Sequence record: MN850590.1
Direction: 5' to 3' (one strand)
DNA: 64,000 nt
From: Escherichia phage moha
Positions within the stretch are counted from its first letter, which is position 1. Each line of letters opens with the position of its first letter. The translations under genes and the position numbers were made by a program. The notes beneath the pieces were generated by a model, which did no database searches, was not told where the DNA came from, and worked only from the letters and a program-made list of their open reading frames with translations. Below are positions 17,419 through 45,655 of this stretch, in pieces.

Positions 17419-18054
17419 ATGAAAACTACTCCTATTACTATCGCTATTGACGCAATCGTAAAACAAGCTTCTTCTTTGGCTACTATGGCCAAAGTAATTA
17501 GTCAAAACCCTGCTCGTTATAATGCTATTCTAGAAACTCTTCGACGCCCAGGACTTAGCAATTATGAAAGCCGAGTAATTATTACAGGTGTTGGTAAGAA
17601 TGCTAATATTGCAACTAAAGCTTCTGAGACATTTGCTTCACTCGGTATCCCAAGTATGTACTTGAACACCGGGCATTATTCTCACGGTGATGCAGGATTC
17701 ATTGCGCCTAATGATGTGTTGATTCATATTAGTCGTTCTGGTAAGACCGAAGAAATGATAGGTGTTGCTAAACATCTTCGTATGATTCGTCCGAACGTCA
17801 AACAGATTCTGTTGCATTGTAACCCAGACATTCCACAAGAAAATGAAGCCCTTTTTGATTACTCTTTCTGTACAGGCATCGCAGTAGAGGTTGACGAGAA
17901 CTCTTTAGCTCCGACTATGTCTACTACATTGTTGTTAGCGCTTATCGATACGTTTGCTATCAACCTTTCGTCTGAGCGTGGATTTACCTCTAATGACTTC
18001 CTTAAGTTCCACCCTGGTGGTGCACTAGGTGCCATGTTACGAGGCGAACAATGA
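17419..18054 (+). CDS. SIS-domain sugar-phosphate isomerase (KdsD/GutQ-like arabinose-5-phosphate isomerase, no CBS domains)
   Basis: ITGVGKNANIA, HISRSGKTEE, LAPTMSTT, HPGGALG blocks co-linear with KdsD SIS domain. Confidence 0.8.
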   Translation: MKTTPITIAIDAIVKQASSLATMAKVISQNPARYNAILETLRRPGLSNYESRVIITGVGKNANIATKASETFASLGIPSMYLNTGHYSHGDAGFIAPNDVLIHISRSGKTEEMIGVAKHLRMIRPNVKQILLHCNPDIPQENEALFDYSFCTGIAVEVDENSLAPTMSTTLLLALIDTFAINLSSERGFTSNDFLKFHPGGALGAMLRGEQ

Positions 18055-18194
18055 AAGCAATAACAATAGGACTTTTACTATTGATGCTTGTCATGACTAT
18101 CTACTGGAGCTTAACAGCTCCAGTAATGATTCCAACACTTGTAATTGGATGGATTATGATTGGACTACAAGCAAAGTATGAATGCTTTAACTAG
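18051..18194 (+). CDS. Hypothetical 47-aa hydrophobic peptide
   Basis: ATGA overlap with SIS gene stop; hydrophobic throughout; below ORF-track cutoff. Confidence 0.25.
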   Translation: MKAITIGLLLLMLVMTIYWSLTAPVMIPTLVIGWIMIGLQAKYECFN

Positions 18195-18207
18195 AATAGT
18201 GTACAAT
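18183..18207 (+). promoter_or_regulatory. MotA-dependent middle promoter upstream of nucleotidyltransferase-kinase gene
   Basis: MotA box TGCTTTA (18183-18189), 12-nt spacer, -10 TACAAT (18202-18207). Confidence 0.55.
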
Positions 18208-18235
18208 ACTCCTACTTACCAATGAGGACTTCAAC

Positions 18236-19921
18236 ATGAAAAAAGCTGTTATTCTTGGTGCTGGATTGGCAACTCGTTTATATCCAATAACGCATCATAT
18301 TCCTAAGGTGCTTGTTAACTATAAACAAGACACTATTCTGAGCAATTTGTATACAATTTATTCTGACCTTGGCGCAGATGAAATTATTGTAGTAGTTCAT
18401 TCAAAATTTGCTGAAACTGTTCGAGCTTATTGTGAGCAAGAAGGGTTCAATGTGACTATTCGTACAGTTGATGAAGCGTATGGATCTGCTTATGCTCTTG
18501 CTAAATTACACAAAGATTTAGACGGCCATAATGTAATTGTTAACTGGTGTGATATTATTCCTGATTTTGGTTCATGGTCTTGGAATGTTAACGCAATCTA
18601 TGTTAAAGGTGACGAATGTCGATATAATTTCGACGGTGAAAATATCACTAACGTAGGTTCAACAGGTGGTAATGTTGTAGGAATTTATCAGTTCAAAGAC
18701 TGGGAATTCTATATGGGTTCTACTGATGAAGAAATTCATGAATACTGCAAAGGACGTGATTTCGTAGAATTCCTTTACGCCAGCGCATTCAATAAATCAG
18801 AGCTTATGAATCTAATTGATTTAGGTGATATGCCTAAACTTGAAAAGGCTCATGAAGTTCGTGAACTTAATCGTAGTTTTAATGCAGTTGAAATTGGTGA
18901 AGAAACTGTAACTAAATTCGCATTGACCGAACAGGGTCGAGCTCTTCAGAAAGATGAGATTTCATGGTATCTTAAAGTGAAATCGGATTCAGTTCCTCAG
19001 TTAGTTTCTGTTAATGAAAATAACTTTGAAATGGAACGCATTAAAGGTAAGCCGGCATTTGAATATATTAAATCCAAATCAAGTCTTGCTCGTCCACAAA
19101 TTGTTGATGCAATTTTAGATGCACTGAAATTCAGCACAGACACTTATTTTGTAAGTCCTGAAACTGTTCGTCGTGATTTCACTAAAGAATTCTATACGAA
19201 AGTTATTGATCGTTGTGAAAGCATTCAACCATTGATTGATTCATTTGGTAAAATCACGCATGTGAACTACACTAAGATTGGACGTCTGAAGCCAATGCTG
19301 AAACAAGCTTTAGAACACCTTATTCGTTATCATAACCGTTCTCAGGGGCAGTACTCTGTTATTCACGGTGACCCGAACTTCAGTAATACTATGATTACTG
19401 ATAACGGCGAAGTCAAGTTTATCGACCCTCGTGGATATTTTGGCGAAACCAAGATTTACGGGCCAAAATTGTATGATGAAGCTAAAGTGCTTTATGCTGT
19501 TTCAGGTTATGATGAATTCAATGCTAATCCGACCTGGGGACAGTTTACTATTGATGAAACAACTTGTAATGTGACTATTAACATCAATCCATTAGTTTAC
19601 AAATATGGAAAGATGAGTTCGTTTAACGAGTATCATCATTTGGCAGTGGCAATTATCTGGATTGCATTAGGTGGTTATTTCAAGAATAATCCACTTAAAG
19701 CGGTAGCCGCATATTATAAAGGTATGGAACTTCTGACTAAGCAATTACGTAACATGGGCCGTGTACTTCAGGACGGCTCTATTAGTTATGACGTAGCAGA
19801 ACCTGTAACGGCTACTCTGATTACAAAAAATCCTGGTAAATGGGTACTAACTGATAAAGAAACTGGTGTTTCCTATCGTCCAATCGGTGGCGATATCACT
19901 CATCAATGGGAACGAATCTAA
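18236..19921 (+). CDS. Bifunctional sugar-1-phosphate nucleotidyltransferase / APH-fold sugar kinase
   Basis: N-terminal AVILGAGLATRL nucleotidyltransferase motif; C-terminal HGDPNFSN (HxDxxxxN) and IDPRG kinase motifs. Confidence 0.7.
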   Translation: MKKAVILGAGLATRLYPITHHIPKVLVNYKQDTILSNLYTIYSDLGADEIIVVVHSKFAETVRAYCEQEGFNVTIRTVDEAYGSAYALAKLHKDLDGHNVIVNWCDIIPDFGSWSWNVNAIYVKGDECRYNFDGENITNVGSTGGNVVGIYQFKDWEFYMGSTDEEIHEYCKGRDFVEFLYASAFNKSELMNLIDLGDMPKLEKAHEVRELNRSFNAVEIGEETVTKFALTEQGRALQKDEISWYLKVKSDSVPQLVSVNENNFEMERIKGKPAFEYIKSKSSLARPQIVDAILDALKFSTDTYFVSPETVRRDFTKEFYTKVIDRCESIQPLIDSFGKITHVNYTKIGRLKPMLKQALEHLIRYHNRSQGQYSVIHGDPNFSNTMITDNGEVKFIDPRGYFGETKIYGPKLYDEAKVLYAVSGYDEFNANPTWGQFTIDETTCNVTININPLVYKYGKMSSFNEYHHLAVAIIWIALGGYFKNNPLKAVAAYYKGMELLTKQLRNMGRVLQDGSISYDVAEPVTATLITKNPGKWVLTDKETGVSYRPIGGDITHQWERI

Positions 19922-20307
19922 TGCCCCGTGTAGAAAACATGCTTAATCTTTGTTTTGATGTCGATGATTGCATCACGGAATGGAATAACAATCGTGATTA
20001 CGTGAACTTCAAACCAGACGTCGAAATGGTGTCTGCCATTAATGCCCTGTATGATGCAGGGCATACCATAACGCTTTACACTGCTCGTGGTATGAAGTCA
20101 GTAGGTCCTGGTCGTATAGCAATTGACATTCTCCCAAGTCTGATTCAGAACTTGGAAAACATTGGTTTGAAGTACCATAATTTGCTAACACATAAACCAG
20201 TATATGATTGGATTATCGACGACAAAGCTATGCGTCCTGATGAATTCAAAGCTCTTATGAATAAAGGCGAATTCGAAACATTTAAATCATATAAACCAAA
20301 TCTATAA
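19921..20307 (+). CDS. HAD-superfamily phosphatase (small, KdsC/GmhB-like)
   Basis: Motif I FDVDDCIT, motif IV IIDDK; ATG 19921 overlaps upstream stop (alternative ATG 19906). Confidence 0.6.
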   Translation: MPRVENMLNLCFDVDDCITEWNNNRDYVNFKPDVEMVSAINALYDAGHTITLYTARGMKSVGPGRIAIDILPSLIQNLENIGLKYHNLLTHKPVYDWIIDDKAMRPDEFKALMNKGEFETFKSYKPNL

Positions 20308-20364
20308 TAATTTAAGTAAGACCTGCAAAAACCATCGCATCAATTAACGTGAGATGCAAAAAAA

Positions 20365-21525
20365 ATGAATACTTTTAAAATCGGAACGAATTTTGATTTA
20401 GCTCTTCTTGATAAAATCGTAGAGCTCAATAAAACCTATCCTAATAGCTTGATAAACGAAGTATATGGCTCTACAAGAGAAATGGCTTTTGTAGCAGCCA
20501 GACCTGATTTTAGGCTTCCTGACGTTGACAAAAAGATGTTAGAAGACTACGTTAAACGTTGTAACGAATTAGGTATTTGCTTTAACTATACACTCAACAC
20601 GATAAATCCTGGTTCAAAAAGAGAACTAGTTGAGTGGAAGAAGAAAGCTATTCAGGATTATGTTCAGTATCTTTGGTCAATAGGCGTATGGCGTATTACT
20701 ATCGCTAACCCTGTTGTTATGGAAATTGTTCGTGAAGTCAATAAAGATATTGAGATTGAAGTTTCAACAATTCTACATGTCGATGCTGTAACTCAAATAA
20801 AATACTTGCATGACCAATATAACATCAAAAAGGTCTGTTGCGGAATTCATAAGAACCGTTCAGTTTCTTTCCTGAAGCGTGCAGCAGAGTTTTGCAATAA
20901 GAACAATATAATATTTGAAGTTCTTGTAAATGAGTTCTGTTCTAATGCTGGTAAAGGGTATACAACACATTGTAGCTATCGTGACTCTTGCTATATTTTC
21001 CATAGTACTGATGTTACCGCTGATGATGCTAAATCCTTAAATGGATATCCAATGCAACACTGCATTAAAGCTCGTGATACAGACCCATTTAACTGGCTGA
21101 GAACTCGTTTTGTTCGTCCTCAAGATTTGAAACTTTATAATGATATTGGTATCACTCAATTCAAAGTTTCAGGACGTACAGGTAGCACAGACTACATTTT
21201 GAAAGTTCTTGAAGCATACGCTTCTGAAAAGTTTGAAGGTAATTTGTTAGAACTGTGGAAGCCTTTAGAGACTATTTTCACTCTTGAAAACGAAACTGAG
21301 TTTTCACATACAGTAAATATTGAAACCTCTTTGTTAGATGGCTTTTTAGAAAAAAGGTGGTTCAGACATCCAGATTTCGATTGTGCTAATGAAATCTGCG
21401 GGACGACGTGTACATATTGTGAAAGATATTATAAACGTCAATTATCTAAAAACGGGTTAGCAGAAAACTCTATATCTATTATTGATATAACTAACTCTGA
21501 TGACGCTTTGAGGTACCCGGAATGA
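20365..21525 (+). CDS. Cys-rich putative Fe-S enzyme (family unassigned; U32-like or radical-SAM-like)
   Basis: 386 aa; CX3CX2C (CGTTCTYC) near C-terminus plus internal Cys cluster EFCSNAGKGYTTHCSYRDSC. Confidence 0.55.
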   Translation: MNTFKIGTNFDLALLDKIVELNKTYPNSLINEVYGSTREMAFVAARPDFRLPDVDKKMLEDYVKRCNELGICFNYTLNTINPGSKRELVEWKKKAIQDYVQYLWSIGVWRITIANPVVMEIVREVNKDIEIEVSTILHVDAVTQIKYLHDQYNIKKVCCGIHKNRSVSFLKRAAEFCNKNNIIFEVLVNEFCSNAGKGYTTHCSYRDSCYIFHSTDVTADDAKSLNGYPMQHCIKARDTDPFNWLRTRFVRPQDLKLYNDIGITQFKVSGRTGSTDYILKVLEAYASEKFEGNLLELWKPLETIFTLENETEFSHTVNIETSLLDGFLEKRWFRHPDFDCANEICGTTCTYCERYYKRQLSKNGLAENSISIIDITNSDDALRYPE

Positions 21526-21761
21526 TTTCTAGAAAAACTTTTAACCACCAACTTAATGAAGAGATTTTGACTATGAAACTGAACACTAATGAACAAATTC
21601 TTAAAAAGGCCCTGATGGGCCTTTTTGAAACTAAAGCGGCTAAAGTGATTAAAGAACCTGTTCAATTAGAATACTACGCTGATGCATTTCTTCATAGTGT
21701 TCTTGGAAGTATCGATGCCGAAGCTTTACGTTATATCAATATTGCCAAGAAATTCAAATAA
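21522..21761 (+). CDS. Hypothetical protein
   Basis: 79-aa ORF overlapping upstream stop. Confidence 0.4.
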   Translation: MISRKTFNHQLNEEILTMKLNTNEQILKKALMGLFETKAAKVIKEPVQLEYYADAFLHSVLGSIDAEALRYINIAKKFK

Positions 21762-21802
21762 GCTTTACGAATTGAGTATATAATAATTGTATTGAGGTAA
21801 AC

Positions 21803-22519
21803 ATGGGAAAACATAACACAATGAAATATATCAAAGCCGCAGATTTTCAAACCGCATTTAAAGCAGTCAATCGTGAAATTTTAGAAAACCCGGAATTCGT
21901 AACTGATTCTCGTATTGGACGTTGTAATGAAATTGGGTCTATGACAGTAGTTGTTGACACTCCATCATCATTCAAAATGACCGACCCACGTATTAACCGC
22001 ATCTCTTATGAATATGCCGAAGACTTCTGGAAGTTTATGATTTCTGGTGGTACCAACGCAGAAGAAGCGTTTAAGGCATATCCTAATGTCGCTAAATTTA
22101 TTTCTAAACCAAAATCAGATGTTTTGCCGGCGAACTTCAACACTTTCTATGGTCCTCGCATTGCGGCTCAATTACCAGCTCTTCTAAAAGAACTTAAAGA
22201 GAAGCCTAACTCTCGAAGAGTTGTGTTCCAAATTCTAGAAAGTTCTGATCAGGCTTTGCTTGATTCGGACGAAACGCTTGAATATCCATGTACTGACTCA
22301 GTGACTTATTATATTCGTGATGGTAAGCTTTATACCCACTGTCATATGCGTTCTCAGAACTGTGCTGTTGTTATGCAGTTGGATTTTTATCTCCAAGGAA
22401 AATTACTTCATTATATCGCTAACGAATGTGGTGTAGAAGTTGGTGATTATACTCATACCATGGTAAGTGCCCATGTGTTTGAACGTGATTTTGATTATGT
22501 TAAAGGATTCCTTGACTAA
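21803..22519 (+). CDS. 42: ThyA-fold pyrimidine hydroxymethylase (dCMP hydroxymethylase-like)
   Basis: Candidate nucleophile Cys in EYPCTDSV and HMRSQN block typical of thymidylate synthase/dCMP hydroxymethylase family; position of T4 gene 42. Confidence 0.7.
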   Translation: MGKHNTMKYIKAADFQTAFKAVNREILENPEFVTDSRIGRCNEIGSMTVVVDTPSSFKMTDPRINRISYEYAEDFWKFMISGGTNAEEAFKAYPNVAKFISKPKSDVLPANFNTFYGPRIAAQLPALLKELKEKPNSRRVVFQILESSDQALLDSDETLEYPCTDSVTYYIRDGKLYTHCHMRSQNCAVVMQLDFYLQGKLLHYIANECGVEVGDYTHTMVSAHVFERDFDYVKGFLD

Positions 22520-23418
22520 TGGCTATTTTCCGCGTACCTATCTTGAGTATGCGGTCTTATGAAACTGGACAGTATGCTATCCTTAAGGATGGCAACTTCC
22601 AACTTCATTTGCACCGTGCTAATCCAGGTGATGTGATTACATATCCACGTAATGCATCTGATATTAAAGAATGTGAACGTCTTTTCCCAGAATTTAAGTT
22701 TGTTCCATTATGGTATAAAGATAACGCGTATAACACTCGTAAATATTTCTGGTCTGAAAATGAATTTGTGGTTGATTCATTAATTGCTTATTATGATTGT
22801 GATTTTCTAATCACAGATATCACTGGATATGATGGTGCTTTTGATGTAGAATTCAATTTCAATATCACTGCAGACCCTAATAAACCACGTTTTTATATTG
22901 ACGAATTCTTAAAAACTGATATGTTGTCGGTTAATCGTTCACTTCAAACTACTGTGTTGAATGAACGTCAAAAAGAAGTGCTGGTTAACGCAGGTGCAAA
23001 TGGTAATAAGATTATCGTAACGCAGAAAGTTATACGTCCTTCCATCATGCAGCGTCTTGTAGGTGATTTGGCTCCTATTCATCTAGATGGTATTTTTCAT
23101 CCATTTCGAATTAGTGACCCATGCTATCGTTTTGAACAAGTGGTTGAATGTGCAATTCAATTAGGTCAACCGCTTTATATAACCGATCCAAATAATAGCT
23201 TCGACAGAAATAAGTATCCTGAAGAAGCGTTGATTCGAATTTTTAAACCAACTAAAACTGAGTACTATCAAATTCTTAAAGGACGTCCGAAGATTCAATA
23301 TTTCGAAAATCCTGAAGAAGTATTCCATCCAGGTCTTGGTGAGTTCATCTACTTTAATGCTTTAATTTCTTCGCCGTATAATATACCTAAATACGAAGAT
23401 GTCGTAATCGAGGAATAA
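22519..23418 (+). CDS. Hypothetical protein in the beta-gt slot (candidate DNA-modification enzyme)
   Basis: 299-aa ORF, no recognised motifs; lies where T4 has beta-glucosyltransferase. Confidence 0.55.
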   Translation: MAIFRVPILSMRSYETGQYAILKDGNFQLHLHRANPGDVITYPRNASDIKECERLFPEFKFVPLWYKDNAYNTRKYFWSENEFVVDSLIAYYDCDFLITDITGYDGAFDVEFNFNITADPNKPRFYIDEFLKTDMLSVNRSLQTTVLNERQKEVLVNAGANGNKIIVTQKVIRPSIMQRLVGDLAPIHLDGIFHPFRISDPCYRFEQVVECAIQLGQPLYITDPNNSFDRNKYPEEALIRIFKPTKTEYYQILKGRPKIQYFENPEEVFHPGLGEFIYFNALISSPYNIPKYEDVVIEE

Positions 23419-23419
23419 A

Positions 23420-23968
23420 ATGGCTAAAATTATTTTAGTAGACGGCCCAGATAATGCTGGTAAAACAACTTTCATTAATGACATAATGGAAATTAGTGAA
23501 AGATATGTAAAGATTGATTTCCCTAAACGAACAGTTGATGGACGTTTCGATGTTAAGTCTCGAAATGAAGTTGGCTGTTTCGAAACGATGTTGAATTATT
23601 TAGACCCTACTAAGATTTATCTGTTAGACCGTGGATATATTAGTAACTGGGTTTATGGACGTATTCGACAAGATGCGGACTCGGTTCTTGATGTTTATGA
23701 ACAGGATTATGTTCGTCTTTGCCAAAACCATGATGTGTTCACAATTATTTTAACACGTAACGAAATGACTGAAAGTTTTGAAGACGACCTTATTACTTTG
23801 TCTTCATTCGGTTTTAATACAGTCATTTCACATTTTGAAGAGTTTGCAATTCATAACAAAATCCAAACGTATCAATTACTTAATCATGATGGTGCTAACA
23901 AAGTTATAGGATTTAATGCAAGCGAACGTAATGATTTGATTACAGAAATCATCAAATGGGCTCGTTAA
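23420..23968 (+). CDS. P-loop nucleoside-monophosphate kinase-like protein (Tmk-like)
   Basis: Walker A DGPDNAGKTT; LDRGY...YG resembles thymidylate kinase DRY/lid region. Confidence 0.6.
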   Translation: MAKIILVDGPDNAGKTTFINDIMEISERYVKIDFPKRTVDGRFDVKSRNEVGCFETMLNYLDPTKIYLLDRGYISNWVYGRIRQDADSVLDVYEQDYVRLCQNHDVFTIILTRNEMTESFEDDLITLSSFGFNTVISHFEEFAIHNKIQTYQLLNHDGANKVIGFNASERNDLITEIIKWAR

Positions 23969-24066
23969 GAGCCATTTAAAGTTTTAAATGCTGTATAACC
24001 CTTAGTATATAATCATTTTATCTTTTAAACATGAGTAAAATATAATGATGCCTATGGAAAAATACA

Positions 24067-25239
24067 ATGTCTGATTTAAAATCTCGTCTGATTAAAGCTT
24101 CTACTTCTAAAATGACTGCAGACTTGACTAAGTCTAAGCTGTTTAATAATCGCGATGAAGTCCCTACTCGTATTCCGATGTTGAATATTGCATTAGGTGG
24201 TGCACTGAATGCAGGGTTGCAATCAGGCTTAACTATTTTTGCTGCACCTTCTAAACATTTTAAAACATTGTTTGGACTAACTATGGTTGCAGCGTATATG
24301 AAGAAATATAAAGATGCAATCTGTTTGTTTTATGACTCAGAATTCGGTGCTTCAGAATCTTATTTTCGTTCAATGGGTGTTGATTTAGACCGTGTAGTTC
24401 ATACTCCGATTCAATCTGTCGAACAACTTAAAGTTGATATGACTAATCAGCTTGACGCTATTGAACGCGGTGATAAAGTTATTATCTTTATTGACTCGAT
24501 TGGTAATACTGCATCTAAGAAAGAAACCGAAGATGCATTGAACGAGAAAGTTGTAGGTGATATGTCTCGTGCTAAGGCACTTAAATCTCTGTTCCGCATT
24601 GTGACCCCGTATCTGACTATTAAAGATATTCCGTGTGTTGCAATTAACCATACAGCAATGGAAATCGGCGGATTGTATCCTAAAGAGATTATGGGTGGTG
24701 GTACAGGTATTCTTTATTCTGCCAACACAGTGTTTTTTATCTCTAAACGTCAGGTTAAAGAAGGTACAGAATTGACCGGTTATGACTTCACGTTGAAAGC
24801 AGAAAAATCTCGCACAGTTAAAGAGAAATCTACTTTCCCGATCACGGTTAATTTTGATGGCGGTATTGACCCATTCAGTGGCTTGTTAGAAATGGCAACT
24901 GAAATTGGTTTTGTGGTTAAGCCTAAAGCCGGTTGGTATGCTCGCGAATTCCTTGACGAAGAAACAGGTGAAATGATTCGTGAAGAAAAATCATGGCGTG
25001 CTAAAGCTACTGATTGTGTAGAATTCTGGGGACCTTTGTTTAAACACAAACCTTTCCGAGATGCAATTGAAACTAAATATAAACTAGGTGCTATCTCTTC
25101 TATTAAAGAAGTTGATGACGCTGTTAATGACCTTATTAATTGCAAAGCAACAACTAAAGTTCCGGTTAAAACTTCTGATGCTCCGTCTGCAGCAGATATA
25201 GAAAACGACCTTGACGAAATGGAAGATTTCGATGAATAA
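24067..25239 (+). CDS. uvsX: Recombinase UvsX (RecA-like)
   Basis: T4 UvsX-like N-terminus MSDLKSRLIKASTSK as recalled; Walker A GPSKHFKT. Confidence 0.95.
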   Translation: MSDLKSRLIKASTSKMTADLTKSKLFNNRDEVPTRIPMLNIALGGALNAGLQSGLTIFAAPSKHFKTLFGLTMVAAYMKKYKDAICLFYDSEFGASESYFRSMGVDLDRVVHTPIQSVEQLKVDMTNQLDAIERGDKVIIFIDSIGNTASKKETEDALNEKVVGDMSRAKALKSLFRIVTPYLTIKDIPCVAINHTAMEIGGLYPKEIMGGGTGILYSANTVFFISKRQVKEGTELTGYDFTLKAEKSRTVKEKSTFPITVNFDGGIDPFSGLLEMATEIGFVVKPKAGWYAREFLDEETGEMIREEKSWRAKATDCVEFWGPLFKHKPFRDAIETKYKLGAISSIKEVDDAVNDLINCKATTKVPVKTSDAPSAADIENDLDEMEDFDE

Positions 25240-31953: not shown

Positions 31954-32041
31954 AATATCTCCTTAGTTACCTATTATTTATTACGCTTTATAAAATTAAT
32001 GTTAGAATTAACTCTCTTATACTGAATTGAAAGGAAAAATA

Positions 32042-32563
32042 ATGGCACACTTTAACGAATGTTCACAACTTATTTCTGGTGTTGATAAAGCAGAAGAAGC
32101 TTATTTTAATGCTCTGATTCACGAAGATAAAGACCCACTGCAGGTAATGCTTGATATGCAGAAATCTTTACAGGTTCGTCTGGCAAATGACAAGCCTGAA
32201 CATAACAAACATCCTGATGAATTGGTCACTGCTGGCGATGTTGTTGATTGGCTGCGTAATCAGAAAGATTATATTGATGATGAATTCCGTGAACTGCTGA
32301 CTTCACTTGGTGGTATGAGCAATGGTGAAAAAGCCGCTAGCTCTGTATGGAAGCCATGGAAAGCACAACATGCTGAATATCGAAATCGTCGTATCGATGA
32401 ACTGTCTCCTGAAGACCAGCTTGAAATTAAATTTGAAATGATTGATATTCTGCACTTCGTTCTGAACATGTTCCAAGGTCTGGGTCTTTCTGCTGAAGAA
32501 ATCTTTAAACTGTATTATCTGAAGAATGCTGAAAACTTTGCTCGTCAAGACCGAGGTTATTAA
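32042..32563 (+). CDS. 56: dCTP pyrophosphatase gp56 (MazG-like)
   Basis: All-alpha MazG-like sequence with acidic block EDQLEIKFEMIDILHF; position after gene 61. Confidence 0.7.
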   Translation: MAHFNECSQLISGVDKAEEAYFNALIHEDKDPLQVMLDMQKSLQVRLANDKPEHNKHPDELVTAGDVVDWLRNQKDYIDDEFRELLTSLGGMSNGEKAASSVWKPWKAQHAEYRNRRIDELSPEDQLEIKFEMIDILHFVLNMFQGLGLSAEEIFKLYYLKNAENFARQDRGY

Positions 32564-44554: not shown

Positions 44555-45655
44555 ATGAAAGTTATGTTTATCCCATCTCGTGCAGTCCCATTTAACCCAG
44601 AACGTGTACAAGGTGGTCTTGAAGCAGTACATTTAAATGTGTTGAAATATCTTGTGTCCATCGGTGCCGATATTGATTATATTGGTTTTGATAATGACAC
44701 ATTTGGTGATTGGAAGGTTAATCATCATCCTGTTGGTCATCTGACTAAATTCAGTCTAGGTATGAGTTATACTATGGCTCGTAAGATTGTTGAACTAGCC
44801 GGCATCCATGAATACGATTTTGTTGTTACTATGGAACCGACTAAACTAACCGTTCAGGCAATTAAAGACGCAGGTCTCTCTAAAGTTCATAAGAATTTTA
44901 TGGCAACACCATTTGAACCGGTATCTCGTGGCATTGTTCAAATTTGGGACCAGACTATTCAAATTCATAAGAATGGTGGTAAGAGTTATGCTCCTACTAA
45001 AGCCTTCCGTGAATTTGAACGTAAATATTGTTATATGACTTCAGGTCTGACTGACAAAATTGATTATGATTATTGGCGAGCAAATCCTTTGTTTGAAGCC
45101 GAAGATTATCCGGTTATTTGTTTGACTGAAAAGCCAGAAGTTCTTCCGGCGACGGATCTGATTATTAGTGCACAACGTTATGACACTAAAATGCGTCGTA
45201 CTGATGTTGCTCTTGAAGCGATTAAAGCACTAGGCGAAAATGGTGCAGGATACTGTCCAAGCAAATGGGCGCCACCGGCTAAATATCCTGTTATTATTGA
45301 TGCTCCACACAGTGAAATTATGGAACGTCTTAAAACAGCTAAAGCACTTATTAATACGTGTCCTGACACAGGTACGGTAGAGAATAGTTCTATTGAAGCC
45401 ATCTCTAAAGGTGTCCCTGTAATCCAGTTAGTTTTTAAGGATTATCCTCATGCGACATTTGAATACGACCCAGATACTGTGCGTGTAGAAATTGATTCCT
45501 CTACTCCTAAGAAAGAAGTAGTTGCGCTTTACACAAAAGCTGTATTAGAATTCACTGACACATACGAAGCTCGAGTTAAACGTGCTGAAGCAGTATGGAA
45601 GAAGTATAACCGAGATGCAGTTGTTGCGATGTGGGATAAAATCTTCACAGCGTAA
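44555..45655 (+). CDS. GT-B fold glycosyltransferase (candidate DNA sugar transferase)
   Basis: N-terminal MKVMFIPS...GG.E.V and C-terminal ENSSIEAISKGVPVIQ resembling GT-B donor-binding E-x7-E region. Confidence 0.6.
   Translation: MKVMFIPSRAVPFNPERVQGGLEAVHLNVLKYLVSIGADIDYIGFDNDTFGDWKVNHHPVGHLTKFSLGMSYTMARKIVELAGIHEYDFVVTMEPTKLTVQAIKDAGLSKVHKNFMATPFEPVSRGIVQIWDQTIQIHKNGGKSYAPTKAFREFERKYCYMTSGLTDKIDYDYWRANPLFEAEDYPVICLTEKPEVLPATDLIISAQRYDTKMRRTDVALEAIKALGENGAGYCPSKWAPPAKYPVIIDAPHSEIMERLKTAKALINTCPDTGTVENSSIEAISKGVPVIQLVFKDYPHATFEYDPDTVRVEIDSSTPKKEVVALYTKAVLEFTDTYEARVKRAEAVWKKYNRDAVVAMWDKIFTA

Follow-up and report, generated by a model that had tools for sequence, protein, structure and literature searches.

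Arabinosylation of phage DNA has been described for RB69 and its relatives. RB69 DNA was first described, in 2018, as containing arabinosyl-hydroxymethylcytosine (PMC6024577), and that assignment was later corrected to arabinosylated 5-hydroxydeoxycytidine (5hodC) by nuclear magnetic resonance and mass spectrometry together with enzyme assays (PMC13326640, PMC13390438). Lee et al. (NAR 2026, PMC13326640) determined that RB69 gp48, acting with a phage deoxynucleoside monophosphate (dNMP) kinase, puts 5-hydroxy-deoxycytidine into the DNA of E. coli. The same authors found that 18O from 18O2 enters the product of gp48 and that the purified protein carries flavin mononucleotide (FMN). For a crystal structure with bound flavin and a reconstitution in vitro they refer to He et al. 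2026; the activity has also been reported for the phage HY126 enzyme. As the diagnostic residue they propose an Asn where E. coli ThyA has Asp169, and nine further proteins with this D169N change were active. We analyzed a 64,000-nucleotide stretch of Escherichia phage moha (MN850590.1), referred to here as the window, and within it three adjacent genes at 21803-23968 that encode a ThyA-fold protein, a 299-residue protein, and a kinase resembling thymidylate kinase (Tmk). These three genes very probably form the core of the pathway by which RB69-like (Mosigvirus) phages hypermodify their DNA with arabinosyl-5-hydroxycytosine. The pathway and its core enzymes are already published, and the finding is real but not new. 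NicPhage, which is 98.5% identical to the window, has DNA that was chemically shown to carry 5-ara-dC and 5-ara-ara-dC (PMC13390438).

Three coupled genes in the gene 42 slot

The three genes, with deoxycytidine monophosphate abbreviated as dCMP and its 5-hydroxy derivative as 5-hydroxy-dCMP or 5hodCMP, are as follows.

21803-22519, + strand: ThyA-fold protein, 238 residues, corresponding to RB69 gp48; predicted 5-hydroxy-dCMP synthase
22519-23418, + strand: compact GT-B glycosyltransferase by structure model, 299 residues, corresponding to RB69 gp46:47; predicted first (base-proximal) arabinofuranosyltransferase
23420-23968, + strand: P-loop nucleotide kinase of the thymidylate-kinase fold, 182 residues, corresponding to RB69 gp45

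The window belongs to Mosigvirus, the RB69-like T-even phages, and is AT-rich, with a GC content of 0.35-0.40. Across 18000-24100 it showed 98-99% DNA identity to many Mosigvirus genomes, among them JK42, APCEc01, NicPhage, and NRG-P0074. All three open reading frames of the initial annotation were recovered at the coordinates listed, on the + strand. The stop codon of the first gene overlaps the start codon of the second in the sequence TAATG, and the kinase gene begins 1 nucleotide past the stop of the second gene, with GAGGAA ahead of it. GAGG also precedes the first ATG of the ThyA-fold gene. The three genes are one tightly coupled unit. A scan of the locus for promoter and terminator consensus sequences gave no signal above shuffled expectation. 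Each protein matched a PHROG family, with E values of 7e-47 (ThyA-fold protein), 3.5e-156 (299-residue protein), and 1.6e-45 (kinase). These matches, and the hundreds of phage records with tblastn matches to the second and third proteins, mark the frames as real genes rather than products of chance.

Gene order agreed with the placement of the 299-residue protein in the beta-gt position that the initial annotation had proposed. The order in T4 is 42, beta-gt, segA, uvsX, and the order in the window is ThyA homolog, 299-residue protein, kinase, uvsX. Downstream come uvsX, gene 40, and gene 41, and the trio therefore occupies the slot of T4 42, beta-gt, and segA.

Similarity searches with tblastn placed the transferase in 348 phage records and its companion kinase in 343, and for most host genera the two counts agree: 176 and 176 for Escherichia, 57 and 57 for Acinetobacter, 15 and 15 for Shigella, and 7 and 7 for Proteus. 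The same three-gene order has been reported for DLP3 (gp80-79-78) and for Rhizobium phage RL38J1 (gp216-215-214) (PMC13326640). Two jumbo-phage metagenome contigs (L006, 216 kb, and L005, 356 kb) encode module proteins that are 28-38% identical to those of the window. Both keep the gene for an AfhE-like sugar kinase and pyrophosphorylase, a ThyA homolog with the motifs EEYPCTDS and HMRSNN, the transferase, and a kinase gene that overlaps the end of the transferase gene. By co-occurrence, by the jumbo contigs, and by conserved order, the trio is one unit. The sequences of these contigs suggest that 5-hydroxycytosine glycosylation may extend well outside Straboviridae.

On the two jumbo contigs the ThyA homologs are longer, at 298-346 residues, with N- and C-terminal extensions. 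These homologs are followed by genes for a YAcAr-domain protein and a dCMP deaminase, and by a gyrase/topoisomerase gene.

Chemistry of the ThyA-fold enzyme

The ThyA-fold protein matched Pfam Thymidylat_synt (PF00303) at 56.9 bits (cut-off 24.3) and was identical to RB69 gp48 at 236 of 238 residues (99%). There were 5 differences over 238 residues (about 98% identity) from PDB entries 9IQC and 9IR2, a 238-residue protein deposited as "thymidylate synthase". These entries are presumably the phage HY126 enzyme, because the neighboring entry 9IQZ is titled "phage HY126 glycosyltransferase". The motifs EYPCTDSV (residues 160-167) and HMRSQN (181-186), which the initial annotation had taken as catalytic signatures, were both present.

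We aligned landmark residues to E. coli ThyA and to T4 gp42, the latter sequence taken from a database. C163 of the window protein aligned with C146, the catalytic cysteine of E. coli ThyA. E160 aligned with L143 and is acidic, like the corresponding residue of gp42, and D194 aligned with N177, consistent with a preference for dCMP. N186, the last residue of RSQN, falls in the column of E. coli ThyA D169 and of the Asp that ends RSND in T4 gp42. Because Asn sits at the D169 position, we read HMRSQN as a hydroxylase signature and not as a hydroxymethylase one. From these sequence features, the window enzyme is predicted to be a flavin- and O2-dependent dCMP C5-hydroxylase and not a hydroxymethylase.

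The initial annotation had called this protein a hydroxymethylase that looked divergent from the T4 enzyme. The divergence was borne out, at 25% identity to T4 gp42. The name was not, since the 99%-identical RB69 gp48 makes 5-hydroxy-dCMP from dCMP with flavin and O2 (PMC13326640) and the D169N change is present in the window protein. The accompanying caution that T4 gp42 behavior should not be assumed was well placed, although the choice it posed, between dCMP and dUMP, turned out not to be the real question. As a whole, the observation was confirmed, and the interpretation placed on it was partly supported.

If the enzyme were a folate-dependent dCMP/dUMP hydroxymethylase like T4 gp42, the sugar would sit on hydroxymethylcytosine. 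Such an enzyme would share the ThyA fold, the Asp at the N177 position, and the acidic residue at the L143 position, as T4 gp42 does; arabinosyl-hydroxymethylcytosine was the original description of RB69 DNA (PMC6024577), and the gene goes by "dCMP hydroxymethylase" in many GenBank records. However, the Asp169 kept by both T4 gp42 and E. coli ThyA is Asn here, and identity to T4 gp42 is low. The product of gp48 is 5hodC with its oxygen from O2 and a flavin as cofactor, which refutes the hydroxymethylase reading for RB69 gp48 (PMC13326640), and the DNA of relatives lacks the methylene bridge (PMC13326640, PMC13390438). A T4-type identity was ruled out on the 25% identity, the Asn at D169, and the published chemistry (PMC13326640), and we regard a folate-dependent enzyme at this position as extremely improbable.

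The 299-residue candidate glycosyltransferase, the kinase, and the acceptor

There were no matches between the 299-residue protein and any Pfam family (E <= 0.1) or NCBIfam family (E <= 0.01), including Glycos_transf_1 and Glyco_trans_4, and a sequence search against PDB chains returned nothing useful. There was no sequence or close structural similarity to T4 beta-gt, and homology to that family was rejected. At the level of sequence, these results agree with the initial annotation, which had seen no recognizable glycosyltransferase motif. Homologs of the protein were found as 137 matches in a protein search and in the 348 phage records mentioned above, with tblastn identities of 45.6% for DLP3 and 47.5% for Thanatos-2. 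An AlphaFold2 model built with 48 homologs reached a predicted local distance difference test score (pLDDT) of 94.5 and a predicted template modeling score (pTM) of 0.89, and its best structural neighbors were sucrose-phosphate synthase, BshA, and MshA. The model was confident and the fold searches agreed, and we therefore read the protein as a compact GT-B enzyme, predicted to have two Rossmann-like domains with a cleft between them, and not as a new fold.

The residues that are invariant in the family are S10-M-R-S, K23-D-G-N, D100, F193-x-P-F-R197, T222-D-P-N, K246, and H270-P-G272. E275, which is Glu or Asp in 48 of 48 homologs, comes after H270-P-G272 and looks like the first half of the E-x7-E motif of GT4 enzymes. 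I283 stands in place of the second Glu, E267 is not conserved, and roles for these residues, such as diphosphate contacts by the basic R197 and K246, are by analogy only.

In nucleotide sequence, RB69 ORF047c and ORF046c together make up the counterpart of this gene. In the RB69 reference (NC_004928, 24597-25497), one extra T at alignment column 545 splits the gene, and the window frame is intact over 299 codons. PMC13326640 likewise states that the RB69 frame is split, and, solely because of its structure, names the product of the joined frames "arabinosyltransferase 1". The fold, the synteny, and the co-occurrence suggest that the 299-residue protein would transfer arabinofuranose from uridine diphosphate (UDP)-arabinofuranose to the 5-hydroxyl of cytosine.

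The kinase was identical to RB69 gp45 at 181 of 182 residues. DGPDNAGKTT (residues 8-17) and LDRGY (69-73) were present as the initial annotation had read them, and the protein has a Tmk fold with a P-loop and a DR(Y/H/F) motif. Invariant in 23 homologs were the P-loop, F34-P-K, R48-N-E, D70-R, and D122-D-L-I. There was no Pfam Thymidylate_kin match, TIGR00041 scored 16.6 bits (cut-off 83.25), and a sequence search against PDB chains returned nothing useful. These results fit the first proposal, a Tmk-like nucleotide kinase that goes together with the other two genes, and it is plausible by analogy that it phosphorylates a modified dNMP. RB69 gp45 is listed just as "nucleotide kinase", and the T4-type dNMP kinase gp159 of RB69 converts 5hodCMP to the diphosphate (PMC13326640). 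A kinase of the gp159 type is encoded outside the window.

In the proposed pathway, the phage dCTPase gp56 would supply dCMP, and the ThyA-fold enzyme would use FMN and O2 to convert it at C5 to 5-hydroxy-dCMP, as shown for the 99%-identical protein. 5hodCMP would be converted to the diphosphate by a T4-type dNMP kinase, as shown for RB69 gp159, with the Tmk-fold kinase a possible alternative, and then to the triphosphate, presumably by the host. The phage DNA polymerase would insert 5hodC for C, as shown in vivo with RB69 genes in E. coli. The 299-residue GT-B enzyme would then transfer D-arabinofuranose to the 5-hydroxyl. Its donor, UDP-arabinofuranose, would come from the isomerase, kinase/pyrophosphorylase, and phosphatase encoded upstream, and a 366-residue transferase (44555-45655) would add a second arabinose. 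The outcome would be DNA resistant to many restriction enzymes and some CRISPR systems.

Several points weigh against this pathway as drawn. The activities come from proteins of relatives, and the window's own proteins are known from sequence and model. First-arabinose transfer by the 299-residue family was not found demonstrated in the literature searched, which did not extend to He et al. 2026 and Mahler et al. 2025, and the Thanatos homolog has been reported as a UDP-xylose pyrophosphorylase in vitro (PMC12838424). The Tmk-like kinase looks redundant for 5hodCMP, with the T4-type dNMP kinase doing that step (PMC13326640), and no assay of it or of RB69 gp45 was found in the literature searched.

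The Thanatos result raises the question of whether the 299-residue protein is not a transferase at all but produces the sugar donor, as a UDP-pentose pyrophosphorylase. Given UTP and xylose-1-phosphate, TH1_063 formed UDP-xylose in vitro, and it glycosylated none of DNA, dCMP, dCTP, and cytosine (PMC12838424), and the match in the related phage Thanatos-2 is nearly half identical. However, the acceptors tested for Thanatos had no 5-hydroxyl group, and the predicted fold is GT-B and not that of a nucleotidyltransferase. A true NTP-transferase domain is encoded upstream (18236-19921) and is already assigned the donor role (PMC13326640). Taken together, these points make a pyrophosphorylase highly unlikely. 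A new transferase fold, which the initial annotation had suggested, or a structural protein, which would have undone it, could draw on the absence of sequence matches in Pfam, NCBIfam, and PDB. Both were ruled out by the structure model together with two fold searches; we give them practically no weight, and the protein stands as a candidate sugar transferase.

The main live rival to the proposed pathway concerns when the first sugar is added. The 299-residue transferase could arabinosylate free 5hodCMP before replication, the Tmk-fold kinase would serve arabinosyl-5hodCMP, and the polymerase would insert the first sugar together with the base. This route would explain the transferase-kinase linkage, the redundancy with gp159, and the negative DNA assay of the DLP3 homolog. 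In all lineages examined, the jumbo contigs at 28-38% identity among them, the transferase gene lies next to the kinase gene or overlaps it, and their phage-record counts nearly coincide (348 and 343). The T4-type dNMP kinase already handles 5hodCMP (PMC13326640), and the second kinase would therefore need another job. DLP3 gp79 was inactive on 5-hydroxycytosine DNA, a result given as "data not shown", and its authors leave undecided whether the acceptor is nucleotide or DNA (PMC13326640). The structural neighbors sucrose-phosphate synthase, BshA, and MshA use small phosphorylated or acidic acceptors. The transferase family is also acidic, with a median isoelectric point (pI) of 5.2 and 0 of 48 members above 8, compared to 9.05 for T4 beta-gt, which is a weak point. 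However, the 366-residue second transferase, which necessarily acts on DNA, is not basic either (pI 6.3), so charge says little about DNA binding, and net charge was set aside as an uninformative indicator. An in vitro negative described as "data not shown" is itself weak evidence. Furthermore, the phage DNA sugar modifications characterized so far are post-replicative (PMC13326640, introduction), and gp48 with a dNMP kinase alone suffices for 5hodC in DNA (PMC13326640). We consider glycosylation before replication unlikely, but well ahead of the other alternatives, and continue with transfer to 5hodC in DNA as the preferred reading.

Other pathway genes, the U32 neighbor, and known systems

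The remaining genes of the window that bear on the pathway are listed below.

17419..18054, + strand: arabinose-5-phosphate isomerase with a SIS domain (Pfam SIS; annotation of relatives), corresponding to RB69 gp55; predicted first step of donor synthesis
18236..19921, + strand: predicted bifunctional sugar kinase/UDP-arabinose pyrophosphorylase (AfhE-like), corresponding to RB69 gp52:53
19906..20307, + strand: HAD-type phosphatase (AfhF-like; PHROG 1238), corresponding to RB69 gp51
20365..21525, + strand: U32-family protein (Pfam Peptidase_U32, 42.2 bits), corresponding to RB69 gp50
21522..21761, + strand: 79-residue protein whose start overlaps the U32 stop (PHROG 8601, E = 5e-52), corresponding to RB69 ORF049c
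32027..32563, + strand: gp56 dCTPase/dUTPase (Pfam dUTPase_2), corresponding to RB69 gp28; position matches RB69p028
44555..45655, + strand: predicted second arabinosyltransferase, a GT4-like GT-B protein of 366 residues, corresponding to RB69 ORF003c; position matches RB69p003

A role for the isomerase in sugar-donor synthesis was proposed in PMC13326640, which also gives the roles of the AfhF-like phosphatase and, citing He et al., of the AfhE-like protein. The latter matched Pfam NTP_transferase in its N-terminal part, with weak APH-type kinase matches in its C-terminal part, and PHROG 4098 at E = 3e-295. The phosphatase matched the NCBIfam capsule biosynthesis phosphatase TIGR01689 at E = 1.9e-13, below the cut-off. 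The true start of gp56 is probably internal to the frame listed; its role is to supply dCMP and remove dCTP (PMC13326640, Table 1). The 366-residue transferase lies between topoisomerase gene 39 and rIIA.1 and matched no Pfam family. It is nearly identical to PDB 9IQZ/9IR0, "phage HY126 glycosyltransferase" (E = 2e-248), and the role of second arabinosyltransferase comes from PMC6024577 and PMC13326640.

The region 17419-23968 is a single co-directional block with very short or negative spacers, among them overlaps of 16 nucleotides between the AfhE-like and phosphatase genes (18236-19921 and 19906-20307) and 4 nucleotides between the U32 gene and the 79-residue frame. Relatives carry homing-endonuclease genes at differing points of the sugar-donor cluster, and the window has none there (about 19906-20365). 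In NRG-P0074 the insertion separates the AfhE-like gene from the phosphatase gene, and in Virsaitis27 it separates the phosphatase gene from the U32 gene; the homing-endonuclease coordinates compared were 5907-6668 on L001 and 2852-3490 on L009.

The U32 protein was found by tblastn in 221 phage records, in all of them at 80% identity or more. In Thanatos-2 it is 82% identical, compared to just 47.5% for the transferase. Ten cysteines (C158, C177, C192, C203, C209, C233, C340, C345, C349, and C352) were invariant among 40 homologs with identities down to 47%, and the last four form the C-terminal motif C340-x4-C345-x3-C349-x2-C352. There was no similarity to E. coli RlhA, TrhP, UbiU, or UbiV by BLAST or phmmer, and MAFFT gave only a loose alignment of the cysteine-rich core; family placement rests on the Pfam model for this reason. 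Homologs 50-58% identical to the U32 protein adjoin dCMP deaminase, deoxynucleoside kinase, and 5'-nucleotidase genes in other large phage contigs. Homologs 49-56% identical to it, with the same C-terminal cysteine motif, were present on three metagenome contigs of 466, 60, and 86 kb (L013 7001-8086, L015 7001-8083, and L014 7001-8098). They adjoin nucleotide-metabolism genes and not sugar clusters, the neighbors including dCMP deaminase, DnaE-type polymerase, UDG, Tmk, deoxynucleoside kinase, 5'-nucleotidase, and nucleoside deoxyribosyltransferase. L014 also has a second U32 paralog, 21% identical, beside a radical SAM gene.

In Kanagawavirus and Winklervirus, the small frame that overlaps the U32 stop encodes a true chorismate mutase (Pfam CM_2 at 38.5 and 44.6 bits, cut-off 27; PDB 1ybz, E = 3e-7). 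In 48 phage records, which cover at least 11 host genera, the U32 gene and the ThyA homolog are separated by a chorismate mutase gene, and in every annotated record its frame was under or beside the annotation of the ThyA homolog. The window's 79-residue protein, found in 162 phage records, was considered as a diverged chorismate mutase and rejected, since it matched no Pfam family and resembled neither the KLB31 nor the Virsaitis27 chorismate mutase. Both proteins occur together in some Yersinia phages; in phiR1-RT they stand side by side and are therefore different proteins. Chorismate mutase makes prephenate. The bacterial U32 proteins RlhA (5-hydroxycytidine in rRNA) and TrhP (5-hydroxyuridine in tRNA) carry out C5 hydroxylation of RNA pyrimidines; RlhA is an iron-sulfur enzyme with prephenate as hydroxyl donor, and TrhP is prephenate-dependent, compared to O2-dependent TrhO (PMC13602947). 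By analogy, the U32 protein may be an O2-independent, prephenate-dependent cytosine hydroxylase that offers a second route to 5-hydroxycytosine, a proposal we hold tentatively and think somewhat more doubtful than not. A link between U32 proteins and O2-independent cytosine hydroxylation was not found in the same literature, again without He et al. 2026 and Mahler et al. 2025.

Host distribution was compared as well. Acinetobacter is not among the ten leading hosts for U32, with at most 3 of the 221 records, compared to 57 for the other genes of the module. This genus is strictly aerobic. The gut hosts of these phages are facultative anaerobes, although the ThyA-fold hydroxylase depends on O2. 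The pattern is not clean, because about 40 Escherichia phages also lack U32. DLP3 lacks U32 and builds the same arabinosyl sugar (PMC13326640), and U32 is therefore not needed for the sugar; the same paper names the protein "sugar or heterocycle reductase". If our proposal were true, the pair of U32 protein and chorismate mutase would represent oxygen-independent cytosine hydroxylation and a new substrate class for the U32 family.

The finding itself is mainly a correction of annotation. In most of the several hundred deposited genomes with the module, the second gene is a "hypothetical protein", and the label of the first is either "dCMP hydroxymethylase" or "thymidylate synthase". The correct labels, according to the published biochemistry, are 5-hydroxy-dCMP synthase and arabinosyltransferase (predicted). 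A single Asp-to-Asn change within HMRSQN suffices to separate the two chemistries, and the modification decides which restriction, glycosylase, and CRISPR defenses a therapeutic phage evades. The remaining value of the locus lies in the acceptor of the first transferase, the substrate of the second kinase, and the role of U32.

Among known systems, RB69 gp48 and the HY126 homolog (PDB 9IQC, 9IR2, and 9IQU) are closest to the window enzyme. They have the same catalytic cysteine, Glu at 143, Asn at 169, and Asp at 177, and the same position between the U32/79-residue pair and the transferase; the 2 and 5 substitutions that separate them from the window enzyme amount to nothing of substance. T4 gp42 (PDB 1B5E family) and E. 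coli ThyA have the fold and the catalytic cysteine in common with it, and T4 gp42 also shares the dCMP substrate (Asp at the N177 position) and the genomic slot. In contrast to the gp48 class, which has Asn and uses flavin and O2 to make a 5-OH, T4 gp42 keeps Asp169 and uses methylene-tetrahydrofolate to make a 5-CH2OH. The 299-residue protein corresponds to the "arabinosyltransferase 1" family of RB69 gp46:47, DLP3 gp79, and Thanatos TH1_063, of which the RB69 copy is split by a 1-nucleotide insertion. The kinase shares the fold, the P-loop, and the DR motif with Tmk, although it falls below the curated Tmk sequence models.

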